Below are positions 3,001 to 28,558 of a stretch of 64,000 bases of DNA, in pieces. The stretch is from Methanomassiliicoccales archaeon (GTDB taxonomy: Archaea; Thermoplasmatota; Thermoplasmata; RBG-16-68-12; SOIM01): NCBI GenBank assembly GCA_030593885.1, contig JAUVGH010000004.1:13783-77782 (forward strand), read 5' to 3'. Made by a program: the position numbers and the translations under genes. The notes below the pieces were generated by a model. That model ran no database searches. It saw nothing but the letters and a program-made list of their open reading frames with translations, and was not told the origin of the DNA. Numbering within the stretch: position 1 is the stretch's first letter; the number at the start of each line of letters is the position of its first letter.

Positions 3001-5450
3001 ACTACCGACATGTGACGATAAACATACTCAACAACCAGTTCAGCGACATCTACAACAGTTTCAACTATGGAATCTACTTCTCCAATGACATATACCACAC
3101 CAGGTCTTTCCCGGGCACCTTCGATCTCGTGGTGACCAACAACTTCTTCAACGATCTGACGAGCTATGCGGTGCGCTTCAACCAGGTCAGGTACTTTGAG
3201 ATTACGGACATGCTCATCGTGGACAACGACTTCTCACGCTCGGACTACGGTTTCTACATCAATGGCGGTGTGGATTACGCAGGCATCTGGGACTTCGAGT
3301 TCGCCAGGAACAACGGGGACGACATGGACAGCTACATGCTGTACCTGGGAGGAACCTCGTACGGCAATGATGGTGACATGGCCACGATTTGGGTCCACGA
3401 CAATACCATGTCCGGCTCATGGGACGGAATCTACGTGGATGGTCTGTACTACTACGACCTGTCAGGAGGATTACTGATCGAGCTCAACACCTTCACGGAC
3501 ATGAGGAACGGATATGGTATCGAGCTCGGATGGTTCTATCAGGTCGACAATGCTTACTTCACCATCCGGGACAACACCATCACCGGGAACATGTGGGCCG
3601 CCATCTACTTCGACGGAGCAGAGGACATGGCCTATGTCCTTGACATCATCAACAACGACCTGACCGGCGTCCAGAACGCCATATACCTCAGTTATCCAGT
3701 CTACGGTGACGGCATGTTCACCGTGGGAGTCATCAACATCAACCAGAATGATGTAAGGGACCTTACTGGCTATGGAATCTCCATCGACAATGTCTACAAC
3801 GGCCTCATGGACCTGAACATTGACAACAACCTCTTCAGGGGCGATCCGCTCGCTTACTACGGCGTGACGTTCTTCTACTTCGACTACGCCGAATGGAACT
3901 CCATATCCAACATCGACATCACCAATAACATCTTCGAGGACGCGTTCTACGGCTTCTACTTCAGGTACCAGACCAGCGGCTCGATGATCTCCCTTAACAT
4001 GGACCACACATATGTCACCAACACCTTCTACGCCTTCTACTTCGACGATCCGGTCAGTTCCAGCTCGGATGTGATGAACGTGAAGATCAAGAAGAGCATC
4101 TTCACCAATTCACAGCTTTCGTTCTTCTACATGGACGATCCTGGATACGGTCTCTTCATCGTGGACATAACCGACTGTAAGGTGAACGACTACGGCTCAT
4201 TGGGCGGTTACGGCTTCTACTTGGCCGACAACGATGGAGCGTACATACAGATAGATGTCCATTCGACCGAGTTCGTGGGCAGCTCGTCTAGGCTTGGCGA
4301 TGCTTTCGCCGGTGATGGACAGATACTCATCAACTTCTGGTACATAGACGGAATCACATCCGGTGTCTCCAATGGCTGGAACCAGAGGATGCAGGTCCTC
4401 TGGGACGTGGACGTTCAGGTCTATGTGGGATACGACTTCAGCACTGCAGCAGGACCTGGAATCATCGTGTACGTCGATGACCAGTTCGGATACCAGAGCT
4501 TCTACACCACAACCAACGCGGCTGGAGCCGTGCCTGGCGAGACAGTTGCAGGAACTCTCATTACCTACAGTGGCACATCGTTCAGCGGTCAGGCCGTTCA
4601 CACATTCTGGGCGACGCAAGGACCGTTCTCGGGTAGCGCTGTGGGCTCGTTCAATGCGAATGGCTCGATTGCGATCCTCCTTCCAGGAGACAATGATGGC
4701 GATGGTCTCCACGACGGAATAGACATTGACGATGACAATGATGGCGTTCCAGACATCTACGACGACTTCCCATTCGATGCCACCGAGATCAGGGACACCG
4801 ACGGTGATGGCATTGGAAACACCAATGATACTGATGACGATGGCGACGGAGTGCCAGATATCGTGGACGCGTTCCCGGAGAACCCATCGGAATGGAGTGA
4901 TATCGACGGCGACGGCGTCGGGGACAACACCGACATAGACATTGACGGCGACGGGATACCCAACATCGTGGACACCTCACCATACAACAACACCGGATTC
5001 CAGGATATGGACGGCGATGGAGTCGCGGACAACATCGACGCCTTCCCGTACAGCCCCGCTGAGTGGGCTGACAACGATGCCGACGGCGTTGGCGACAACT
5101 TGGACGAGGATGACGATAACGACGGCGTGCCCGACACGGCCGACCTCTATCCATTCGATCCGACAAGAACGGATACAAGGGCCGACGAACAGATCAACAT
5201 CGACATCAACGAGGGAGCCGACCTGGGTACCGCACTCGCAATCCTGATAATCGGTATAGTCATACTCGCGCTCATATGGCTCCTCTTCGGTCGCAAGAAG
5301 AAGGACGAGGACGAGGGAGTTCCTCCTGGGCCTGAGGAAGAGATTGAACCTGAGGAAGATGAGATACCGGAAGAGCCGGAAGAAACGATGGAAGAAGAGC
5401 CCGAGGAAGAGGAGAAGTCCTCTGATCTGGAAGATGAGGACATCTTCTAG
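3..5450 (+). CDS. Giant membrane-anchored surface protein (5'-partial): parallel beta-helix repeats, thrombospondin type-3-like Ca-binding repeats, C-terminal TM helix and acidic tail
   Basis: Frame is open from the window edge. Recurrent ~65-aa units (Y/F)R(N/H)VxIxIxxNxF...NWMDYG or NNFDYG; DxDGDG repeats at ~4690-5170; TM LGTALAILIIGIVILALIWLLFG followed by RKKK and an E/P-rich tail. Confidence 0.85.
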   Translation, partial: ASGSTVYGFRHVDIQIHDNVIENLISPTYTGYGVCWYYEVYYSTQDYDSSINLDFTGNNFTDLDNDGIAFRNWAGWDSGYFRNASVNIQNNNFRNTVSSYMDYGIYLRTIYYGRTDADNSIDITITGNTFDSLNNYGIYFYSGTGWDFEGYRNANVVIMNNEMHNTMGNWMDYGIYLQGFEFGGDSYDNYFDMLVTGNNMSDLTANGIYIEGQIYFYRHTTIDILDNVFSDVYNNFDRGIYFSSTIYHTTDYDTDIVINIERNWFFDMNSYGIHFSGAIFNFRNATVTVQDNNFLCLISNWMDYGVYMQNVQYGDDSYDNYFDLTLLNNRFENLTNYGFRISQIYGYRHVTIDITGNYASDVYANFDYAFMFSSSIYYNSAYDSSFTLTISGNTFMDLITRSIDFNGDIWDFRNVLITVDNNDFINLISNWMDGGVELGPMYYSDFDQDSSIRIDITNNVFENLSYAGFRVTNQIYGYRHVTIDVLDNFFSDVYNSFDYGVYFSSIYYTTDYDADFTISVLRNTFQDLSNRAVYFSGSIYNFRTTVITIEDNFFGGVVSNWMDYGVDFSDIYYDVYDVAAYLFFNVTNNRFENISNRGLDVNEIYNMRYTYINIINNYFSDIYNNFDYGVYFNDGFYIDGPEYDSEFILNYLNNEIRNLDYWGYGAYFSQTGNYRIVTVLVDNNDFISTLSGSTGYAIYFDGFYNDDEMYDNYFDFDFTNNNVENLTYMGLYLSYVENYRFTYIDVLNNYLSDIYRNFEYGIYIDGCYIDSTDYYSEAFLNILNNEFRDGDYWSYGVYFYEFGNYHLTVVEIHTNDFISTRSDTFGYGVYIEYFYFDDDMYDTYLWFNATNNVMESLNGEGFTIYEIYGFRHVYIDFLDNSFTGQFNNFDTGIYFGEDTIYYSTNYDSDLTINILRNTFMDLSSRGVYFDGDIYDFRTVTITIDNNDFINTLGNWMDYGVYMNYIYFDNSNSDTYLFLDITNNDFQNLSQYGFRMSQIYYYRHVTINILNNQFSDIYNSFNYGIYFSNDIYHTRSFPGTFDLVVTNNFFNDLTSYAVRFNQVRYFEITDMLIVDNDFSRSDYGFYINGGVDYAGIWDFEFARNNGDDMDSYMLYLGGTSYGNDGDMATIWVHDNTMSGSWDGIYVDGLYYYDLSGGLLIELNTFTDMRNGYGIELGWFYQVDNAYFTIRDNTITGNMWAAIYFDGAEDMAYVLDIINNDLTGVQNAIYLSYPVYGDGMFTVGVININQNDVRDLTGYGISIDNVYNGLMDLNIDNNLFRGDPLAYYGVTFFYFDYAEWNSISNIDITNNIFEDAFYGFYFRYQTSGSMISLNMDHTYVTNTFYAFYFDDPVSSSSDVMNVKIKKSIFTNSQLSFFYMDDPGYGLFIVDITDCKVNDYGSLGGYGFYLADNDGAYIQIDVHSTEFVGSSSRLGDAFAGDGQILINFWYIDGITSGVSNGWNQRMQVLWDVDVQVYVGYDFSTAAGPGIIVYVDDQFGYQSFYTTTNAAGAVPGETVAGTLITYSGTSFSGQAVHTFWATQGPFSGSAVGSFNANGSIAILLPGDNDGDGLHDGIDIDDDNDGVPDIYDDFPFDATEIRDTDGDGIGNTNDTDDDGDGVPDIVDAFPENPSEWSDIDGDGVGDNTDIDIDGDGIPNIVDTSPYNNTGFQDMDGDGVADNIDAFPYSPAEWADNDADGVGDNLDEDDDNDGVPDTADLYPFDPTRTDTRADEQINIDINEGADLGTALAILIIGIVILALIWLLFGRKKKDEDEGVPPGPEEEIEPEEDEIPEEPEETMEEEPEEEEKSSDLEDEDIF
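3639..5215 (+). repeat. Segment colinear with 11411-12987 (offset 7772), containing near-identical blocks shared by the two giant genes
   Basis: 3639-3688 equals 11411-11460 exactly (50 nt); 4053-4136 vs 11825-11908 has 1 mismatch; 4491-4597 vs 12263-12369 has 2 mismatches. Confidence 0.9.
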
Positions 5451-5491: not shown

Positions 5492-8400
5492 ATGGAAGAA
5501 GAAGCCGAATCCATGAGTGAGATTGTGGTTGAACGATCCTTCAGGCGGGTCATTTTTGTCGCCGTGTTCGCCCTCTTTGCATTTGCTGCATTGATGGTCA
5601 TGAGCTCGGAACCTGCCGAGGCGTATACCGTGGTCGCTACTGAAACTTGGATAGCTCCCACGTCCCTCAACGAGGACCTCATAATCGCCCCGGGCGGCGT
5701 GCTGAACCTCCAGTCGGAGCTCTACATGCAGCTCGCGTTCACCGGACAGTATCAGGTGCGAGTTCAGGCCGGCGGGACCTTGAACATGGACGGAGGGACG
5801 ATTACTAGGGATCCTCTGTGGCCACCTGTCTACTACAGCTTCTATCTCGACGTGGGTAGCACTGGGTCGTTCGTGAATTCACAAGTGTCGTACGCTGGCG
5901 GAGGTAGCATGGGAATGTGGATTGAGACCTCTGCATTGACGTTCGACGGATTCACTGTGAGCGATGGAGAGTTCGCCGGAATAATGTACAGCAGTGACCT
6001 TGGCGGCTTCACGATGACCGGCAGTAACGTTGTAAACAACGCTGGTGTTGGGATCTACATCTCTGATTCTACTGCGCCCGATTACGTGTTCAACTTCCTG
6101 GGAAACACTCGCATTGTGAACAACATCCAAGTCGGCGTATACACGGAACCATTAACTGGCACCAATCTGGCAATGAACTTCCAGTCCTCTCAGGTCGCAG
6201 GCCATATGGCGGGCATCTACATTGAAAACGTTGCAAATGGAAACGTCGTTATGGACTTCCAGTCTTCCCTTATCGAGAACAACGATATGATGGCCAATCT
6301 CTGGATTGACCAGGTTGCCAACGGGGATGTGACAATCACCGCTTTCAACACTCATTTTGACTCCAGCGATCAAGGATATGGCATCGTGCTCGGAACTTTG
6401 GGCTCACCAATTGTGACGACGAACTTGTTGATATCCCTGGATCAGAGCTTTGTCAATGATAACGGCGACAGTGGCATCTATGTATCATCCGTCAACGACG
6501 GCTGGATGGATCTTGATTTCACAGATACACAAGTCAATGGAAATGGTTGGTTCTTTGGTTCCGATGGGATATATCTGCCAATGGTGGCCCCAGGCAATGA
6601 TCTATACTTCGGCGCTCTCCGGTCGAGCTTCTCCAACAATGCAGGGTCGGGGATATTCTTCGCTGGTGCAAATCCAGGAAGGATGTACATCGACATCGAC
6701 TTTTGTGACTTCTTCGTCAACGGGGCCGAAGGCCTTGATATCGGCTTCATAACCCAAGGAGGCCTCGATCTAGGCGTGAGGAACAGTTGGATCGAAGGGA
6801 ACGGAGGGGAAGCAATCTTCGTGAGGGGCCTCAACGGAGGCTCGGCAACGATTGTAGTGGACAACAACTCGTTCAACAACTCCTATTCCGCCATCTACTT
6901 CCTTGGCACCCTTGAGACAATCCCCGGAACCAGCGGGACGTTCACGTTCACCTTCACGAACAACTGGCTCAACGCTGATTGGAGTCAATACGGCGTCCAC
7001 TTCGCAAGCAACGTTCAGTTCTTCGACGAGATACTCATCACGGTCGACGACAACTACTTCTGGGGAATGGAATCCCGATCCTATGGCTTGTTCTTTGACG
7101 GTGTGGTCAGAGGCGATCTCAATTTCTGGCAGAATCTCACGATTAGCATCAGTGGCAACGAATTCGTCGGTCTGGATGAGTCCGCCGTGTTCTTCAATCA
7201 ACCGATCTTCGGATTCCGCAACATTGACATAACTATTAGCAACAACTTCCTCTGGGATACCGACTTCGACTACGACTTCGGCTTCGTGTTCTGGGCCATC
7301 ATGGGAGACACCGACCTTGACCTCAACCTTAACGTGATCTCGAACAACAACGTCTATGACACCCTGGGATCCTATCCGTTCTACATTCATGTGGAAAGCT
7401 TCAGACATGTATACATGGAGTTCTCCAACAACGACTTCTTTGGGAATGGGTTCACACAGTACGGGATAATCCTAGATGGGTTCGAATATGGTGCCACGGG
7501 AGAGCTGAGCGATACCGTCCTGATCTTCGACAATAACGAGTTGTATGATCTGACCACTTGGGGAATCTACGTGAGCACACTGGGAATGCCCGTCTCCAAA
7601 GACCTTAGTATGACATTCACCAACAACCATTTCAACGGAACCACTTACGGGACATTCTTCGTAGGAGTACACTTCGGGGGCCAGTTCTACTATACTAGCG
7701 CCGAAGACGGTTCCTACAGTTTGCTGATGGACAACAACGAGTTCTTAGGGCTGCAGGAGACTGGCGTCTACTTTGACTCATCCATTTCTGACTTCTCGGA
7801 CGTCAATATAGACTTCAGGAACAATCTCTTCGAGAACAGGATGAACAACATCTGGATGGACTACGGAATCAACTTCGCAAGTGGCATAGGGTTCTCTGAC
7901 GTCAACCGAGCCAGCGCCTTTACACTGACACTAGAATCCAACCAGTTCTACGATCTCAATAACGATGCATTCGTTGTCACGAGCACTATCGGCGGATTCA
8001 GGAACGTGACCTTCGTCGTGGAGAGGAACGTTTTCGAGAACAGGGTCAGCAACTACATGGAATTCGGCATCAACATTTGGGGCGGGTTCTACTACGATAC
8101 TAACGACTATGACAACTTCCTCTACTATTCTATCAGGGAGAACACCTTCCGCGACCTGAACCAGGACGGGATAAGGTTTGACTCTTGGAGCGCAACCTAC
8201 GGCTTCAGACATGTGGACATCCAGATCCACGACAATGTGTTCGAGAACCAGATGGACCCCAACAACCTGAACAACGGCATCTACTGGTATTACGAGGTAT
8301 TCTACTCCACGAGCATGTACGACAGCTCTTTGAACATCGACATTACTGGAAATATATTCAATGACATTAGCCAGGACGGTATCGCGTTCAGGAATAATTG

Positions 8401-24057: not shown

Positions 24058-24348
24058 ATGGACGATTTCAGCTGGAAAGTTTTAAGCGTGGTAGCTAGGA
24101 GAGGCTATCTGGGTGCCACGCGCGAGGACTTCTTCAAGGAGATTCGTGGGGTCCAATACAAAGCATTGGAGGGGGAGCTGAGGGAGCTTGAGAAGGAGGG
24201 AAGCATCGAGGTCGAATGGACAGGTCCCAACAAGTTCATAATTACCATCACGACCCAGGGCAGCAAGATCGTCGCGGACGAGTACAAGAAACGGATAACG
24301 GACTACGAGCAGGCCACCAAGGAGCAGGCTAAACAGTACGAGGAGTAG
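24058..24348 (+). CDS. Small winged-helix-like hypothetical protein
   Basis: 96 aa; L.ELEKEG.IE...IT.QG pattern. The upstream part of the listed ORF overlaps adk and is discarded. Confidence 0.6.
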   Translation: MDDFSWKVLSVVARRGYLGATREDFFKEIRGVQYKALEGELRELEKEGSIEVEWTGPNKFIITITTQGSKIVADEYKKRITDYEQATKEQAKQYEE

Positions 24349-24404
24349 CCTCTCGAATACCTTTTTGGAAAAGTGAATTAAATCAGAATACGATTCCAGT
24401 ACGA

Positions 24405-24478
24405 GCCCGAGTGGGGTAGCTTGGATATCCTAGAGGCTTGCGGAGCCTCGGACCCGGATTCGAATTCCGGCTCGGGCA
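24405..24478 (+). tRNA. tRNA-Arg (anticodon GCG), no intron, CCA not encoded
   Basis: Acceptor GCCCGAG/CTCGGGC, anticodon arm GAGGC-TTGCGGA-GCCTC, T arm CCGGA-TTCGAAT-TCCGG, discriminator A. Confidence 0.93.
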
Positions 24479-24622
24479 TTCTCCAATGAGTCTGGGTGGA
24501 TTCGAGTGGGTTTGGGTTCGGAACCTTTGTATCCCAAAATCGTAGCAATGATGGAGGCCTGACTTGTACTTCTTGACTACAAATCATAGGTCATCTCCAA
24601 GACACAGGATTTCAGGACAAGG

Positions 24623-26395
24623 CTAAGAAGATTTCACAACCCATGTTGTCTCAGAATCCACCCAAATCCAGTATCCGTATCCTGCTTCAAAAGTCTCTAA
24701 ATCACCAAGCAAACGGAGATAATACGGGCTTGACAGTGAATCGAATCCCTCTATTCGTGAAGACCCAGTGCTCGATTTCAAATTTGTAGCGGTGAAAGAG
24801 GCATTGAAGGATGGAAAACCAACGAGGTTCCAACCTGTGTCAAGGTGGACACTCGTGCGGGAAGGTACCATTCCTGCTATGGTCAGATTTGAACTCCCAG
24901 TGACATTGATCCAGAAACCGATTGTTCGATTCACACTATTCAAATCTCCAAAATAGGGCTTTGATTTATCAAAAGATCTCCATTGCTGGTTGACAGAATC
25001 AAAAAACCATACTCTGTCAAACGACACTGTTTGAAGAACCGCTCCAATGCTTTCGTTTGATGGGGCAAGCGGAATTGATACGAGATTCTGTCCTGCCGAA
25101 AGAGAACGGGTGAATTTGGCCGCTTGGTCTTCGGCACATGTGCTCTTGTTCTTCACATCCAGAGCACAGACTCTGTAGAAGTAATTGTCTGGATTCCCCT
25201 CTCCTGCCAAAACGTCGACGAACTCTGAGGTTCCGTTGACAAGGAATGTGTGGAAGGTGTAGCCCAAACCCTCGATGTCATAACTCACATTCCTGTAGAT
25301 CTGGTAACCAACAACGGACTTATTTCCCGTCCCGTCGTCTCCAGAAGGAGACCAAGCGAGGGTGACATTCTGGAAGCCCGCTCCACCCAAGGTGGCAAGC
25401 AACATTGTAGGAGGCTTGGGAGCCCCCATCCCAAAGGGAAACATGTGCGGGTATCGGTCTTGACTATCTGAGTCGATAACAAAGGGCGTGTCCCCAATAA
25501 CATCACTTCCCGGCTGGTCCTGGTTGGGGCCAGAGAGTAGGTCGAGACCAGTGTAATTGTCCCAATAGTTGCCTCCTGACGGGTATCCGTTGTCCCAAAG
25601 GTTGGCTCCATCATCATACGCCTGTTGTGCGTTATTTACAAGGTTGTTATGATAAGCCAAATTGCCATTGGACCCAAACATCAGAATGCCAGTTCCGGTG
25701 TTCAAATGGACGTCGTTACCCACCATCGTATTGTCTCTTGCGAACCAGAGGTAGAAGCCAAAACCGTTGTCTGTGGAGGTGTTGTTGGAGATTGTGTTGT
25801 TCTCGGAGTCGTAAAGGAAGATCCCATCGGTATTACCGGGGTATAGCGTGTTTCCGAATATGCTATTGTCAGAGGACGAAAAAAGGGTGATACCCCCTCG
25901 ATTATAAGACGCCGAATTATCCAAGACCGTATTATTGGCAGAGGAATCGAGGAAAATTCCCCATGTGTCGGAGATGGCGGTGTTGTTGGAGATATGACAG
26001 TTCTGAACCTGATAGAGTTCTATTCCGGAGTCCCCGCCATCAGGCCCGCTGTTCTTGACAGTGAACCAACTGATGTTAACCCAGTTAGCAGTAACATTGA
26101 CCACATCCCCACTACCACTCCCGTCGATTATCGTTGTATCTCGGTCTTCACCTATTAAGGACATCGGTAGGTCGACGACAACATGCTCATTGTATGTTCC
26201 GTTGTAGACGTAAACGATATCCCCAGGTGCAGAATCATTTATGGCGTCTTGTATTGTAGTGTAGTTACCTGGATTGGACCCGCCTACATAGCGAATAGTT
26301 GCCCTCGAGCTTTCTGGTAGAATCGTCACTACCGAACCTAATACACTCATAAACACAAAGTAGGCGACAAGAAGGCTCATCCTCTTATTGACCAT
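24623..26395 (-). CDS. Secreted NosD/CASH beta-helix protein with FN3-like domain and duplicated C-terminal module
   Basis: Signal peptide, YTTIQDAI, GTYNEHV, GI.L..S.NN repeats, WDNGYPSGGNYW, GDTP..D.YP, two L..G.NLV...G(F/Y)WI.V units. Confidence 0.85.
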   Translation of the reverse strand: MVNKRMSLLVAYFVFMSVLGSVVTILPESSRATIRYVGGSNPGNYTTIQDAINDSAPGDIVYVYNGTYNEHVVVDLPMSLIGEDRDTTIIDGSGSGDVVNVTANWVNISWFTVKNSGPDGGDSGIELYQVQNCHISNNTAISDTWGIFLDSSANNTVLDNSASYNRGGITLFSSSDNSIFGNTLYPGNTDGIFLYDSENNTISNNTSTDNGFGFYLWFARDNTMVGNDVHLNTGTGILMFGSNGNLAYHNNLVNNAQQAYDDGANLWDNGYPSGGNYWDNYTGLDLLSGPNQDQPGSDVIGDTPFVIDSDSQDRYPHMFPFGMGAPKPPTMLLATLGGAGFQNVTLAWSPSGDDGTGNKSVVGYQIYRNVSYDIEGLGYTFHTFLVNGTSEFVDVLAGEGNPDNYFYRVCALDVKNKSTCAEDQAAKFTRSLSAGQNLVSIPLAPSNESIGAVLQTVSFDRVWFFDSVNQQWRSFDKSKPYFGDLNSVNRTIGFWINVTGSSNLTIAGMVPSRTSVHLDTGWNLVGFPSFNASFTATNLKSSTGSSRIEGFDSLSSPYYLRLLGDLETFEAGYGYWIWVDSETTWVVKSS

Positions 26396-26459
26396 GTTCT
26401 CGGCACCCTCACTACTGAATCTGCTTAATGGTTATAATGGTTCTGAACCCAAAGAGGTG

Positions 26460-26484
26460 TCGACCTGGGCGGACTCGAACCGCT
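26460..26484 (-). other. tRNA-like 3' fragment (T arm plus acceptor 3' strand); possible attachment-site remnant
   Basis: Minus strand reads AGCGG-TTCGAGT-CCGCC-CAGGTCG-A; no D or anticodon arm upstream. Confidence 0.5.
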
Positions 26485-26493
26485 TGCCATCTT

Positions 26494-26554
26494 TTCTGTT
26501 ACGCCGTGACAGAATCCACACAGAAATGTCCATTCTGTAATTGAATAACAGAAC
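26494..26554. repeat. Four-box site, left copy
   Basis: TTCTGTTA-5nt-TGACAGAA-18nt-TTCTGTAA-5nt-TAACAGAAC. Confidence 0.85.
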
Positions 26555-26560
26555 TTTGGT

Positions 26561-27211
26561 TTATGTCCAGACATCTCTCGATCTCAACACAGCTCCGTAT
26601 TCCTTGAGAACATCAACAACATCCTCCGCTCGGGCGGACTCCACTAGAACCAGACCGGGACCCAGCTTCTCCCCAATATCCTCGATCAAGCCTGACGACT
26701 CGTTGACATAGACCTTACCTTTGACGCTCTTCTCGACCCTGTATCCGTACAGGGCCCTGTGAACCGCCATCTTCTCCCTCGGGGTCAGTCCGCTCAGAGA
26801 ATAGCTGATTATGGTCCTCGGTTGGAGCGAGGAATGCGGTTCCGTTAGCGTTCCAACGTCCGTTCTGATCCAGATGCCGATACCTTCCTTCATTACCTTC
26901 TTCAGGAAATCCAGTTCGGTACGTCCCATTTCGTTGACATTGTACATGACGAAAGAGAACGAGTGTTCCAGACCGCGTCTCTTCGAGACCTCCGAGGCAA
27001 TCTCGTGGGCGATCCTTCCCTCTCTCCTGGTCTCGGGGTTCCCCTTCATCTCAAACAACAGGAGAATATCGATATCGCTCTTCTTGTGGACCTCTCCCAC
27101 TGCAACCGAGCCAAACAGCATGGCTGCCCTGAGATGCGGCACTCTTTCGAGCCGATTGATGAAGTCGATCAGCGGCAGGGCGAATTCCTCTGGGATCACT
27201 TTCGGCACCAA
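26561..27211 (-). CDS. Minimal nucleotidyltransferase (MNT) antitoxin-like protein with an extra ~90-aa C-terminal domain
   Basis: FGSVAVGEVHKKSDID fits GS-X10-DXD; start overlaps the HEPN stop. Confidence 0.85.
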   Translation of the reverse strand: MVPKVIPEEFALPLIDFINRLERVPHLRAAMLFGSVAVGEVHKKSDIDILLLFEMKGNPETRREGRIAHEIASEVSKRRGLEHSFSFVMYNVNEMGRTELDFLKKVMKEGIGIWIRTDVGTLTEPHSSLQPRTIISYSLSGLTPREKMAVHRALYGYRVEKSVKGKVYVNESSGLIEDIGEKLGPGLVLVESARAEDVVDVLKEYGAVLRSRDVWT

Positions 27212-27540
27212 CCTTCAATCTGTTCAATGATCTTCAATGTCTCTTCGACCACCTCTCCATCACCCTTTCCACCATACCACCTGCCGTGGCGCAGAGTGTC
27301 CAACCTCTCGAATAGCATGGCGATCGAGTCATCGTTCTTGGATCTCAGAAGAGCAGGTATTCCATAATGCACATCCTTGTGTTCGGCGTACTTGGTCTCC
27401 ATCCCATATGCGATCAAGTGGTGGATCATCCCGAAGGCGAGCTCCACTATCGATGAAACGTGTTCTTTCTCATCCTTCAGAAGATGCTCAATGCTTGCTT
27501 TGATTTCCTCCGCCTTCACTAGATGATCTGGGGCTTTCAC
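27196..27540 (-). CDS. HEPN-domain toxin-like protein (114 aa)
   Basis: GTG start preceded by GTGAT RBS; all-helical pattern with LRHGRWYG (R-X4-Y); paired with the MNT gene. Confidence 0.7.
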   Translation of the reverse strand: MKAPDHLVKAEEIKASIEHLLKDEKEHVSSIVELAFGMIHHLIAYGMETKYAEHKDVHYGIPALLRSKNDDSIAMLFERLDTLRHGRWYGGKGDGEVVEETLKIIEQIEGWCRK

Positions 27541-27548
27541 ATTATCAC

Positions 27549-27608
27549 TTCTATTATGCGTAACAGAATCAGGCCTACTTAAGACTTTCTGTAAGTATGT
27601 AACAGAAC
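27549..27608. promoter_or_regulatory. Four-box site, right copy, enclosing the likely HEPN-MNT promoter
   Basis: TTCTATTA-4nt-TAACAGAA-18nt-TTCTGTAA-5nt-TAACAGAAC; the minus strand across the spacer reads GAAAGTCTTAAGTA (BRE/TATA-like). Confidence 0.75.
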
Positions 27609-27699
27609 GGGAAGCGGAATATACCCTCAGAACCGACGCATGCACACACGTCACGAAAAAACAATAAACACCCCCCGTCATTGAGCTTTTGGAGGTCGA

Positions 27700-28329
27700 A
27701 TGAGGAAGGACATCGTTGTGGTCGGCGCTGTTTGCGGAATTCTTGCCCCAATCATCTGGTTCGTCTTCTACCTCATCGCATGGAGCCAGAGCCCCTGGTA
27801 TGAACTCGGCGGACATTACCTGAGCGACCTCGGCGTTGGTGAAGGTGCGTGGGCCTTCAACACCGGTGCTGTGATTGCTGGCTATTTGGCAATTCCATTC
27901 TCGATCGGTCTTTGGGTCACACTCAGGCCCGGATGGTTGCCCCTGATCGGAAGTGCTGTGGGCATCGTCACCGGCATTCTACTGATGTGCGTCGGTATCT
28001 TCACAGAGGATTACGGCAGTCTTCATTTCGTGGTCAGTGTTCTGTTCTTTGCTTTCGCTGCCTTCTTCCAGATAATCATGGCTTGTCCCCTGATCCAGAA
28101 CCCCAAGACGAAGACCGTTGGTTGGGTCGTGACGATCATTATGCTGATCACTGTTTTCACTGTTGGCCTCATTCCACCCGTTCCCGTTCCGCTCCTTGAG
28201 ACTATCGCGGTCTTTGAGATACTGATTTGGACACTGGTCGTGGCAGCGCTATTGTTGTTCATTAGCACGAGGGATATCAAGCGCCCCATTCCCGCCAGCG
28301 CACCCGAGAAAACAACTATATCGTCGTAA
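27700..28329 (+). CDS. DUF998-family membrane protein
   Basis: PW...HYLSDLG, FN.G, GIF.E...LH..VS..FF; about 6 TM; GGAGG RBS. Confidence 0.8.
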   Translation: MRKDIVVVGAVCGILAPIIWFVFYLIAWSQSPWYELGGHYLSDLGVGEGAWAFNTGAVIAGYLAIPFSIGLWVTLRPGWLPLIGSAVGIVTGILLMCVGIFTEDYGSLHFVVSVLFFAFAAFFQIIMACPLIQNPKTKTVGWVVTIIMLITVFTVGLIPPVPVPLLETIAVFEILIWTLVVAALLLFISTRDIKRPIPASAPEKTTISS

Positions 28330-28378
28330 CCCGATTACGGTCCCGACATCCAAAATGGATGGAGGCTAAATTCGAACG

Positions 28379-28558
28379 TGGGCAGAATAGTGAGATACAT
28401 CAAGTGGTCGACTTGAGGGATATTGACTAGGGTATCCCCTGCTTCGGTGAAAGTATCGGGGGCCTGGACCTTCTGCTTCGGCAGCGGGTGTGTGGGCACC
28501 GGTCCTCGTGCCACCAGGGAAGGACTAGCTTCTCATTATCGGCCCGGATAATCGCCCA
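28379..28558 (+). ncRNA. Candidate structured non-coding RNA of unknown family
   Basis: Nested long-range helices plus several hairpins, including CTGC-TTCG-GCAG; strand inferred from the UUCG loop. Confidence 0.35.

Follow-up and report, generated by a model that had tools for sequence, protein, structure and literature searches.

Type VII toxin-antitoxin (TA) systems of the HepT/MntA kind, such as Shewanella SO_3166/SO_3165, are overlapping two-gene operons that encode a minimal Pol-beta nucleotidyltransferase (MNT) and a small four-helix protein of the HEPN fold. The classical multi-operator looping systems are lac O1/O2/O3, gal OE/OI and deo. The Shewanella MNT antitoxin SO_3165 is reported to shift its own promoter DNA, which contains two palindromes, and to have no predicted DNA-binding domain (PMC4621449). 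Moreover, in the Xre-RES TA complex of Pseudomonas putida, more than one dimeric DNA-binding unit engages more than one promoter site (PMC12204516). Full-text literature searches, judged by their result listings and the two papers cited here, gave no account of an operator set downstream of a HEPN/MNT or other TA module. Here we describe such an arrangement in a 64,000-nucleotide stretch of DNA from a Methanomassiliicoccales archaeon (contig JAUVGH010000004.1), referred to below as the window. Two copies of a palindromic four-box site bracket a HEPN/MNT-like gene pair, one copy (U) upstream of the operon and the other (D) just after its last stop codon. The most likely reading, which we consider probable, is a self-regulated module with operator sets at both of its borders. 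The four features concerned are, in the direction of transcription:

27549..27608, minus strand: four-box site U (upstream, right copy), with palindromes at 27587-27607 and 27549-27568 around an 18-nt spacer holding a TFB-recognition element and TATA box (BRE/TATA)
27196..27540, minus strand: gene for the putative HEPN-fold partner protein of 114 amino acids, with a GTG start at 27540 and a stop at 27196-27198, overlapping the MNT gene by 16 nt
26561..27211, minus strand: gene for the MNT-type nucleotidyltransferase of 216 amino acids, with a Pol-beta/MNT fold at residues ~5-117 and a ferredoxin-like C-terminal domain at ~127-216
26494..26554, minus strand: four-box site D (downstream, left copy), with palindromes at 26533-26553 and 26494-26514, 39 nt apart, and a spacer without TATA

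With HepT/MntA, the locus shares the overlapping two-gene operon, the minimal Pol-beta nucleotidyltransferase with invariant GS...DxD residues and structural matches to MNT antitoxins, and a small four-helix partner whose HEPN fold is putative. A promoter with two palindromes is a further likeness to the Shewanella system, in which the MNT binds it; here, binding is putative. The locus differs in the extra ferredoxin-like domain of about 90 amino acids on the MNT, in its gene order with the partner first, in the sequence scores and motifs of both proteins (detailed below), and in the second operator set after the last stop codon. As in lac, gal and deo looping, identical palindromic operators lie at the promoter and at a distance, where a multivalent repressor could bridge them; unlike in those systems, the second set is about 1 kb away, where the operon ends on its 3' side, each set is a fixed pair of palindromes, and the loop itself is postulated. 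Xre-RES is a more distant parallel, since both sites lie in the promoter and are bound by the helix-turn-helix domain of Xre, and the protein families are unrelated (PMC12204516).

The four-box sites are more than chance. In the window sequence, D (26494-26554) reads TTCTGTTA-5-TGACAGAA-18-TTCTGTAA-5-TAACAGAAC and U (27549-27608) reads TTCTATTA-4-TAACAGAA-18-TTCTGTAA-5-TAACAGAAC, and each of the four palindromes conforms to TTCTRTWA-N4/5-TRACAGAA. These are the boxes and spacings reported by an earlier inspection of the letters of the window (the sequence-only reading), whose distances to the gene ends are likewise correct: 6 nt separate D from the MNT stop codon (ending at 26561), and 8 nt separate U from the partner GTG start (27540). 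The box TTCTGTWA occurs seven times in the window, against 2.5 +/- 1.6 expected, and six of the seven lie inside the two four-box sites. The strict palindrome TTCTRTWA-N4-6-TRACAGAA is found four times in the whole 2,141,596-bp assembly, every time at the MNT module, and a relaxed pattern adds a single match on contig C66; genome-wide scatter, which the sequence-only reading had named as a possible outcome of such a scan, is thus not seen. Among 401 genomes of the class, 12 matched the four-box pattern, compared with none for the reversed-pattern control, which gave one match across 61 genomes in another scan. The matches that were checked are MNT-family modules, with three exceptions: a solo site in a genome of another genus (G004), a solo site preceded by the last MNT codons (G100), and a match within a gene (G170), which is probably chance. 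That the boxes are conserved while the spacers drift, as had also been proposed, is borne out by the comparison with congener G003, in which 0 of 64 arm positions and 10 of 55 loop and spacer positions differ.

The sequence of the U copy suggests that it is the promoter of the module. A BRE/TATA-like motif had been noted in its spacer, and is indeed present on the minus strand as AAAGT-CTTAAGTA, at about 27576-27588. On that strand, the AGAA of the first palindrome leads into the 18-nt spacer, AGTCTTAAGTAGGCCTGA, with the TATA at about 27576-27583. At the same place, other archaeal members carry AAAACCTTATGTAGG, AAAAGCTTATTATAGG, AAAAACTTATTTAGTAG, AAAAGCTTATTTTCC, AAACATTATAAAGTAG and AAAAGCCTATATGATCC, and the consensus in these other archaeal loci, AAAAGCTTATwTAG, holds a constant register with respect to the two palindromes. 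From the BRE/TATA, it is about 25-35 nt to the start codon. The first U palindrome would therefore lie upstream of the TATA and the second between TATA and start codon, over the expected transcription start. This appears to be the usual geometry of an archaeal repressor site, and palindromes that flank a putative BRE/TATA in this manner are also a feature shared with autoregulatory TA operators.

The D copy belongs to the module and not to the neighbourhood. Both sets are also found in the congeners G003 and G002, in the genomes G031 and G017 of family f2, and in the Thermoplasmata loci L030, L031 and L066, and in these close relatives D begins 1-7 nt past the MNT stop. The wider family was represented by 42 full-length MNT-family loci, including loci from Methanobacterium, Altiarchaeales, an Asgard metagenome-assembled genome, Anaerolineae, Cloacimonadota and WOR-3, and was scored with the core pattern TGTNA-N3-9-TNACA; three loci had too little upstream DNA for upstream scoring. 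Of the 42 loci, 14 have at least one core in the 135-nt interval at the MNT stop (10 have at least two) and 17 have at least one upstream of the partner gene (five have at least two), with seven loci having cores in both regions, compared with 10 matches in 224,440 nt elsewhere in the same loci. A generic palindrome count was too noisy to be of use, and a de novo search for pairs of spaced palindromes whose arms are alike (13 of 42 loci; three background pairs in 264,877 nt) was too strict and was not used for counts. Across this wider family, the first downstream palindrome begins -12 to +13 nt from the stop codon. Four-box pairs keep a spacing of 38-41 nt, and unpaired or otherwise spaced matches occur in L030, L035, L050, L059, L060 and L062. 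Variant half-sites are seen in L063 (TTTGTGCA) and in L041 and L032 (TTTTGCAT). In two Cloacimonadota loci, L040 and L043, there is overlap between the MNT stop codon and the first downstream palindrome, TGTCACCGTAGTGACA; the second palindrome includes TATAAT and directly precedes the ribosome-binding site of the next gene, and no upstream set was found. We rejected the idea that D descends from the promoter of a tandem module since lost, as the D spacers lack TATA and are of a conserved type of their own, TGGNCA... As a separate observation, in bacterial locus L042 the module and its downstream palindrome pair are flanked by copies of a GC-rich hairpin, GGCAGGGCTCTGCCCTGAC and GTCAGGGCTCTGCCCTGAG, at about 3537-3555 and about 4718-4740, possibly a REP-like repeat.

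The nucleotidyltransferase assignment comes from both sequence and structure comparisons. The N-terminal half of the MNT matches PF18765 (E 5.9e-10) and PF01909 (E 5.9e-07), both above cut-off, a database search with the 216-residue protein returned 28 relatives, and in an alignment of 26 MNT sequences the active-site residues G34, S35, D46 and D48 (GS-x(n)-DxD) are invariant. In the AlphaFold2 model (pLDDT 88), the N-terminal domain is matched by Foldseek to the MNT antitoxins 8xeo and 7bxo with E about 3e-5, and comparison of the MNT with 8xeh_E gave a VIA Z of 11.9. Against the NCBIfam model MntA_antitoxin, however, the protein scores 35.6 bits over residues 22-76 only, where the cut-off is 60, and the equivalog score is thus not reached. 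The C-terminal domain has generic ferredoxin-like matches only (best Z 8.5, to TM1266; Z 7.2 to the NikR C-domain), and in an ESM Atlas look-up its best scores, 0.79-0.81, were too low to be followed further. A homodimer prediction for two copies of residues 122-216 scored 0.23 against a mark of 0.42. Among relatives, this domain comes in two forms, one with a beta-hairpin (helix K-M-x-x-H/K-R) and one without (helix K-R-x-x-F/L/I-R); in the helix at 144-155, residue 148 is Met where the half-sites are TGT(T/A)A and Arg where they are TGTCA. No match to the MNT was found by tblastn in the plasmid and phage collections.

For the partner, the HEPN label given by the sequence-only reading probably holds, but only at the level of the modelled fold. 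Partner proteins were obtained from 27 loci, of which 22 were aligned. The AlphaFold2 model (pLDDT 91) has Foldseek top rows that are largely HEPN-domain proteins (2hsb, 4nqf, 7bxo_D, 3o10, 8xeh_D, 1wol and 1o3u), with TM-scores of 0.53-0.71 and every E at 0.035 or weaker (to 0.7). The sequence-based part of the label did not stand: a Pfam search of the 114-residue protein returned no family, none of the 22 aligned homologs matches a Pfam HEPN family, and no R-x4-6-H pairing of the kind expected for the Rx4-6H RNase motif is conserved across the alignment. A PDB profile search with the alignment found nothing relevant, only weak rubrerythrin rows (E 0.018). Residues H6, H54, H58, R66, R84, G86, R87, Y89 and G90 are invariant, and H85 varies. 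Altogether, the pair is HEPN/MNT-like by modelled fold and gene layout, and membership in HepT/MntA is not demonstrated, because of the low MntA_antitoxin score and the missing Pfam HEPN match and Rx4-6H motif. The partner may be toxic. One indirect hint on such toxicity, or on its neutralisation by AMPylation, is a clean loss of the partner gene in G002, where the MNT and both sites are kept.

The mechanism that we infer, including the binder, the repression and the loop or roadblock, is as follows. A protein encoded by the module would bind the half-site TTYTGTYA(C) as a dimer, and two dimers would be placed about four helical turns apart on each set. The binder would most likely be the MNT, acting through its C-terminal domain, alone or with the partner. 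A binder encoded by the module is the economical choice, since the motif accompanies the two genes in archaea and bacteria alike and no protein besides these two is encoded by the module. Occupancy of U would exclude TBP, TFB and RNA polymerase, and the operon would be repressed. The D set would be bound by the same protein, with one of two consequences: the ~1-kb locus may be looped and repression made cooperative, or D may form a roadblock that ends the module transcript and insulates the module from its neighbours. The tight coupling of D to the stop codon in both domains may slightly favour a role at the transcript or module boundary. It had been suggested earlier that twin operators let the TA complex loop its own locus or control a downstream gene. 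The twin operators fit the conserved BRE/TATA at U, the recurrence of the sites at both ends and the tracking of half-site with MNT subtype; for control of a downstream gene there is no support, since relatives differ in which gene lies there. A bolder form of the mechanism is conceivable, though we think it rather doubtful: the ferredoxin-like C-domain would be a new DNA-binding domain whose helix 1 (K147, H151, R152) reads TTYTGTYA(C), the complex would clamp both ends into a 1-kb loop and make the module a self-insulated portable unit, and the paired sites would occasionally recombine to leave a solo site such as that of G004. In either form, the subfamily offers a sharply defined conserved operator together with a candidate recognition domain, and natural variants are at hand as full module, partner-less form and solo site. 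The unusual second operator set at the 3' border recurs in archaea and bacteria, and if D loops or acts as a roadblock, this would illustrate how a mobile module can stay insulated from any context in which it lands.

Several observations weigh against module-encoded twin operators. No recognisable DNA-binding domain was found in the MNT or the partner by structure comparisons, including those of the C-domain described above. Genome G004 keeps two near-perfect palindromes, and neither MNT nor partner was found in its 93%-complete assembly; this is unexpected if only module proteins bind the sites, unless the loss is recent. With the strict core, 18 of the 42 family loci have no site, and the D set is missing in some archaeal loci that have a U set, for example L035 and L047. 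In the bacterial loci L040, L043 and L051, D lies just before the ribosome-binding site of the next gene and may there be the operator of that gene. The link between half-site and C-terminal domain also has to be read with care: all 12 hairpin-less loci have TGTCA half-sites and all 12 hairpin-type loci with detectable sites carry TGT(T/A)A half-sites, but these are essentially two clades, so that the co-variation goes back to a single evolutionary event or a few, and we treat it as a lead rather than as statistics. Both the near-perfect site that G004 retains without a module and the absence of a known DNA-binding domain from either module protein would be explained if the sites belonged to a transcription factor or regulon of the host that has nothing to do with the module, the module lying between two of them by chance. 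We regard this as highly improbable, as the motif occurs nowhere else in this genome, is found with the gene pair in archaeal as well as bacterial phyla, always in the same place with respect to both genes, and has a half-site type that follows the MNT subtype. Alternatively, the palindromes could form hairpins in both untranslated regions, 5' and 3', of the module mRNA, where they would stabilise or terminate it or be targeted by the HEPN-fold RNase or the MNT. The place of D right after the stop codon is usual for 3' stem-loops, each palindrome could form an 8-bp stem, and in L051, a locus from bacteria, a -35/-10 pair may precede the two upstream palindromes. However, the first U palindrome precedes the TATA in archaea and therefore should not be transcribed, and the arms are conserved rather than co-varying. 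In a pooled set of 42 palindromes from 14 genomes (G001 and G002 were omitted because they hardly differ from this genome and G003), a standard pair is found at position 7 in 20 cases, G.U in five and A.A or T.T in 15, and departures from the consensus are one-sided. The 126-nt downstream region folds with unremarkable energy (z = -1.84; 10 of 200 shuffles fold as well), and an Rfam search of 26300-27750 with E up to 10 gave only a chance snoRNA row within the MNT gene. RNA hairpins are therefore quite unlikely, and a double-stranded protein-binding site is the better reading, given the one-sided departures, the position of the palindrome relative to the TATA, the plain folding energy and the lack of an Rfam match.

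The sequence-only reading had also offered recombination between the copies, with the ~1.05-kb module excised or inserted by a recombinase as a cassette in the manner of attC or Xer/dif sites. Integron attC sites have the core GTTRRRY, and dif is an 11-6-11 site. The four boxes in two inverted pairs, present as direct copies around a short cassette and right after a stop codon, recall such sites, and the copies stand in direct order at the exact borders of the module, which occurs in different genomic contexts in families f1 and f2. Unlike those sites, the palindromes here are near-perfect locally, around a fixed 18-nt centre, and the 38-41 nt spacing is fixed, the U spacer is a putative promoter and the core is unrelated to GTTRRRY or dif. 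No integrase or attI lies nearby and no varied cargo is seen, and the proposed analogy to dif modules or integron cassettes is not supported as it was stated. Across the 42 loci and the checked pattern matches, the only cargo between copies is this gene pair, or the MNT alone in G002, where the partner gene is cleanly missing and U abuts the MNT start on two overlapping contigs, L023 (G002:C1:1-945) and L024 (G002:C16:1-300), both sets being intact. Small differences in the contig overlap suggest strain heterogeneity as the cause of the assembly break, and the partner was not found elsewhere in the 87%-complete assembly. The search for an empty site had a mixed outcome. In G004, a single D-type four-box is followed by the same tRNA-Val fragment as here and lies about 75 nt from a DUF998 gene, at the place equivalent to the upstream copy of this genome and beside the same DUF998 neighbour; a solo site of this kind is the expected product of recombination between copies. 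The solo site of G100 retains the last MNT codons and is, to judge from its sequence, a deletion relic, so that solo sites can arise by ordinary deletion. Contigs of four public DNA runs, compared over 24300-28400, contain no joint across the module, although contigs hide rare variants; among the public runs listed, none was of RNA. Recombinases of the PF00589 family are encoded in this genome only on C39 and C18, none of them on the module contig, and the attachment sites of the local integrase family (C63, C33, G004:C17) have no four-box. Taken together, an excisable cassette is very unlikely, and a self-regulated module with operators at both borders remains the preferred reading. Separately, the possibility that the four-box copies are integrase arm sites was rejected, the attachment sites beside local integrase-like genes carrying none.

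The changing neighbours of the module are explained by its position at the edge of an old integration hot spot, without involvement of the four-box. The relevant feature is:

26464..26481, minus strand: tRNA-Val(TAC) 3'-end-like fragment GGTTCGAGTCCGCCCAGG, 12 nt beyond the D site, recognised from a direct repeat in G031

This fragment is the core of an old attachment site and does not belong to the operator. ARAGORN found no tRNA at the site, the tRNA-like piece being a 3' fragment only. Both G031 and G017 have an intact tRNA-Val some 300 nt upstream of the module, with a repeat of its 3' end past the D set, and in G017 this repeat is succeeded by a Phage_integrase fragment (E 2.1e-23). The locus thereby resembles a tRNA-targeting integrative element, in which a direct repeat of the tRNA 3' end bounds the inserted DNA (G031) and an integrase fragment stands beside the repeat (G017). 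No integrase gene was found in the 64-kb window. In this genome, the tRNA-Val fragment is followed by CCTCTTTGGGTTCAGAACCATTA, and the same sequence is found on C63, C33 and G004:C17, where it comes after a tRNA end or fragment and before an integrase-like gene. The integrase-like protein of G004:C17 has 429 amino acids and, with 25.1 bits, falls narrowly short of the PF00589 cut-off. Between the tRNA-Val core (26464-26481) and a degenerate copy of it (24491-24506), which adjoins a tRNA-Arg, lies a NosD/beta-helix surface-protein gene (24623-26395). This gene is absent from G001 and G002, and G003 has a different gene of more than 996 amino acids in its place. Contigs of the other runs break at 24525 and at 26435-26465, and the only joints over 24300-28400 are at 24525-24607 and 25204-25507. 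The NosD-like gene looks like a variable cassette at the old hot spot.

Some further observations concern the surroundings of these attachment sites. A leader, CCTCTyTGGGTTCAGAACCATTA, occurs at 26436-26458 of the window and at G000:C63:1-290, G000:C33:17404-17739 and L111:1376-1510 (G000 being this genome), following a tRNA 3' end (Pro) or the tRNA-Val fragment and preceding an integrase-like gene. In the window, the gene behind it is now the NosD-like one, which opens with the codons MVNKR, similar to the MVKRG with which the integrase starts. Past the tRNA-Val repeat of G017, locus L021 (G017:C43, 4078-6453) contains a tyrosine-recombinase C-terminal fragment, a glyoxalase-like open reading frame and a second, unrelated-looking nucleotidyltransferase/DUF86-like pair (5810-6112 and 6109-6453), the labels of the glyoxalase-like and nucleotidyltransferase/DUF86-like frames having been assigned by reading the translations. 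This arrangement suggests tandem integrated elements. The tRNA-Val(TAC) gene of this genome itself, at G000:C37:100812-100900, has an intron of about 16 nt after the anticodon region; it was missed by the ARAGORN default run and found by BLAST with the G031 tRNA.

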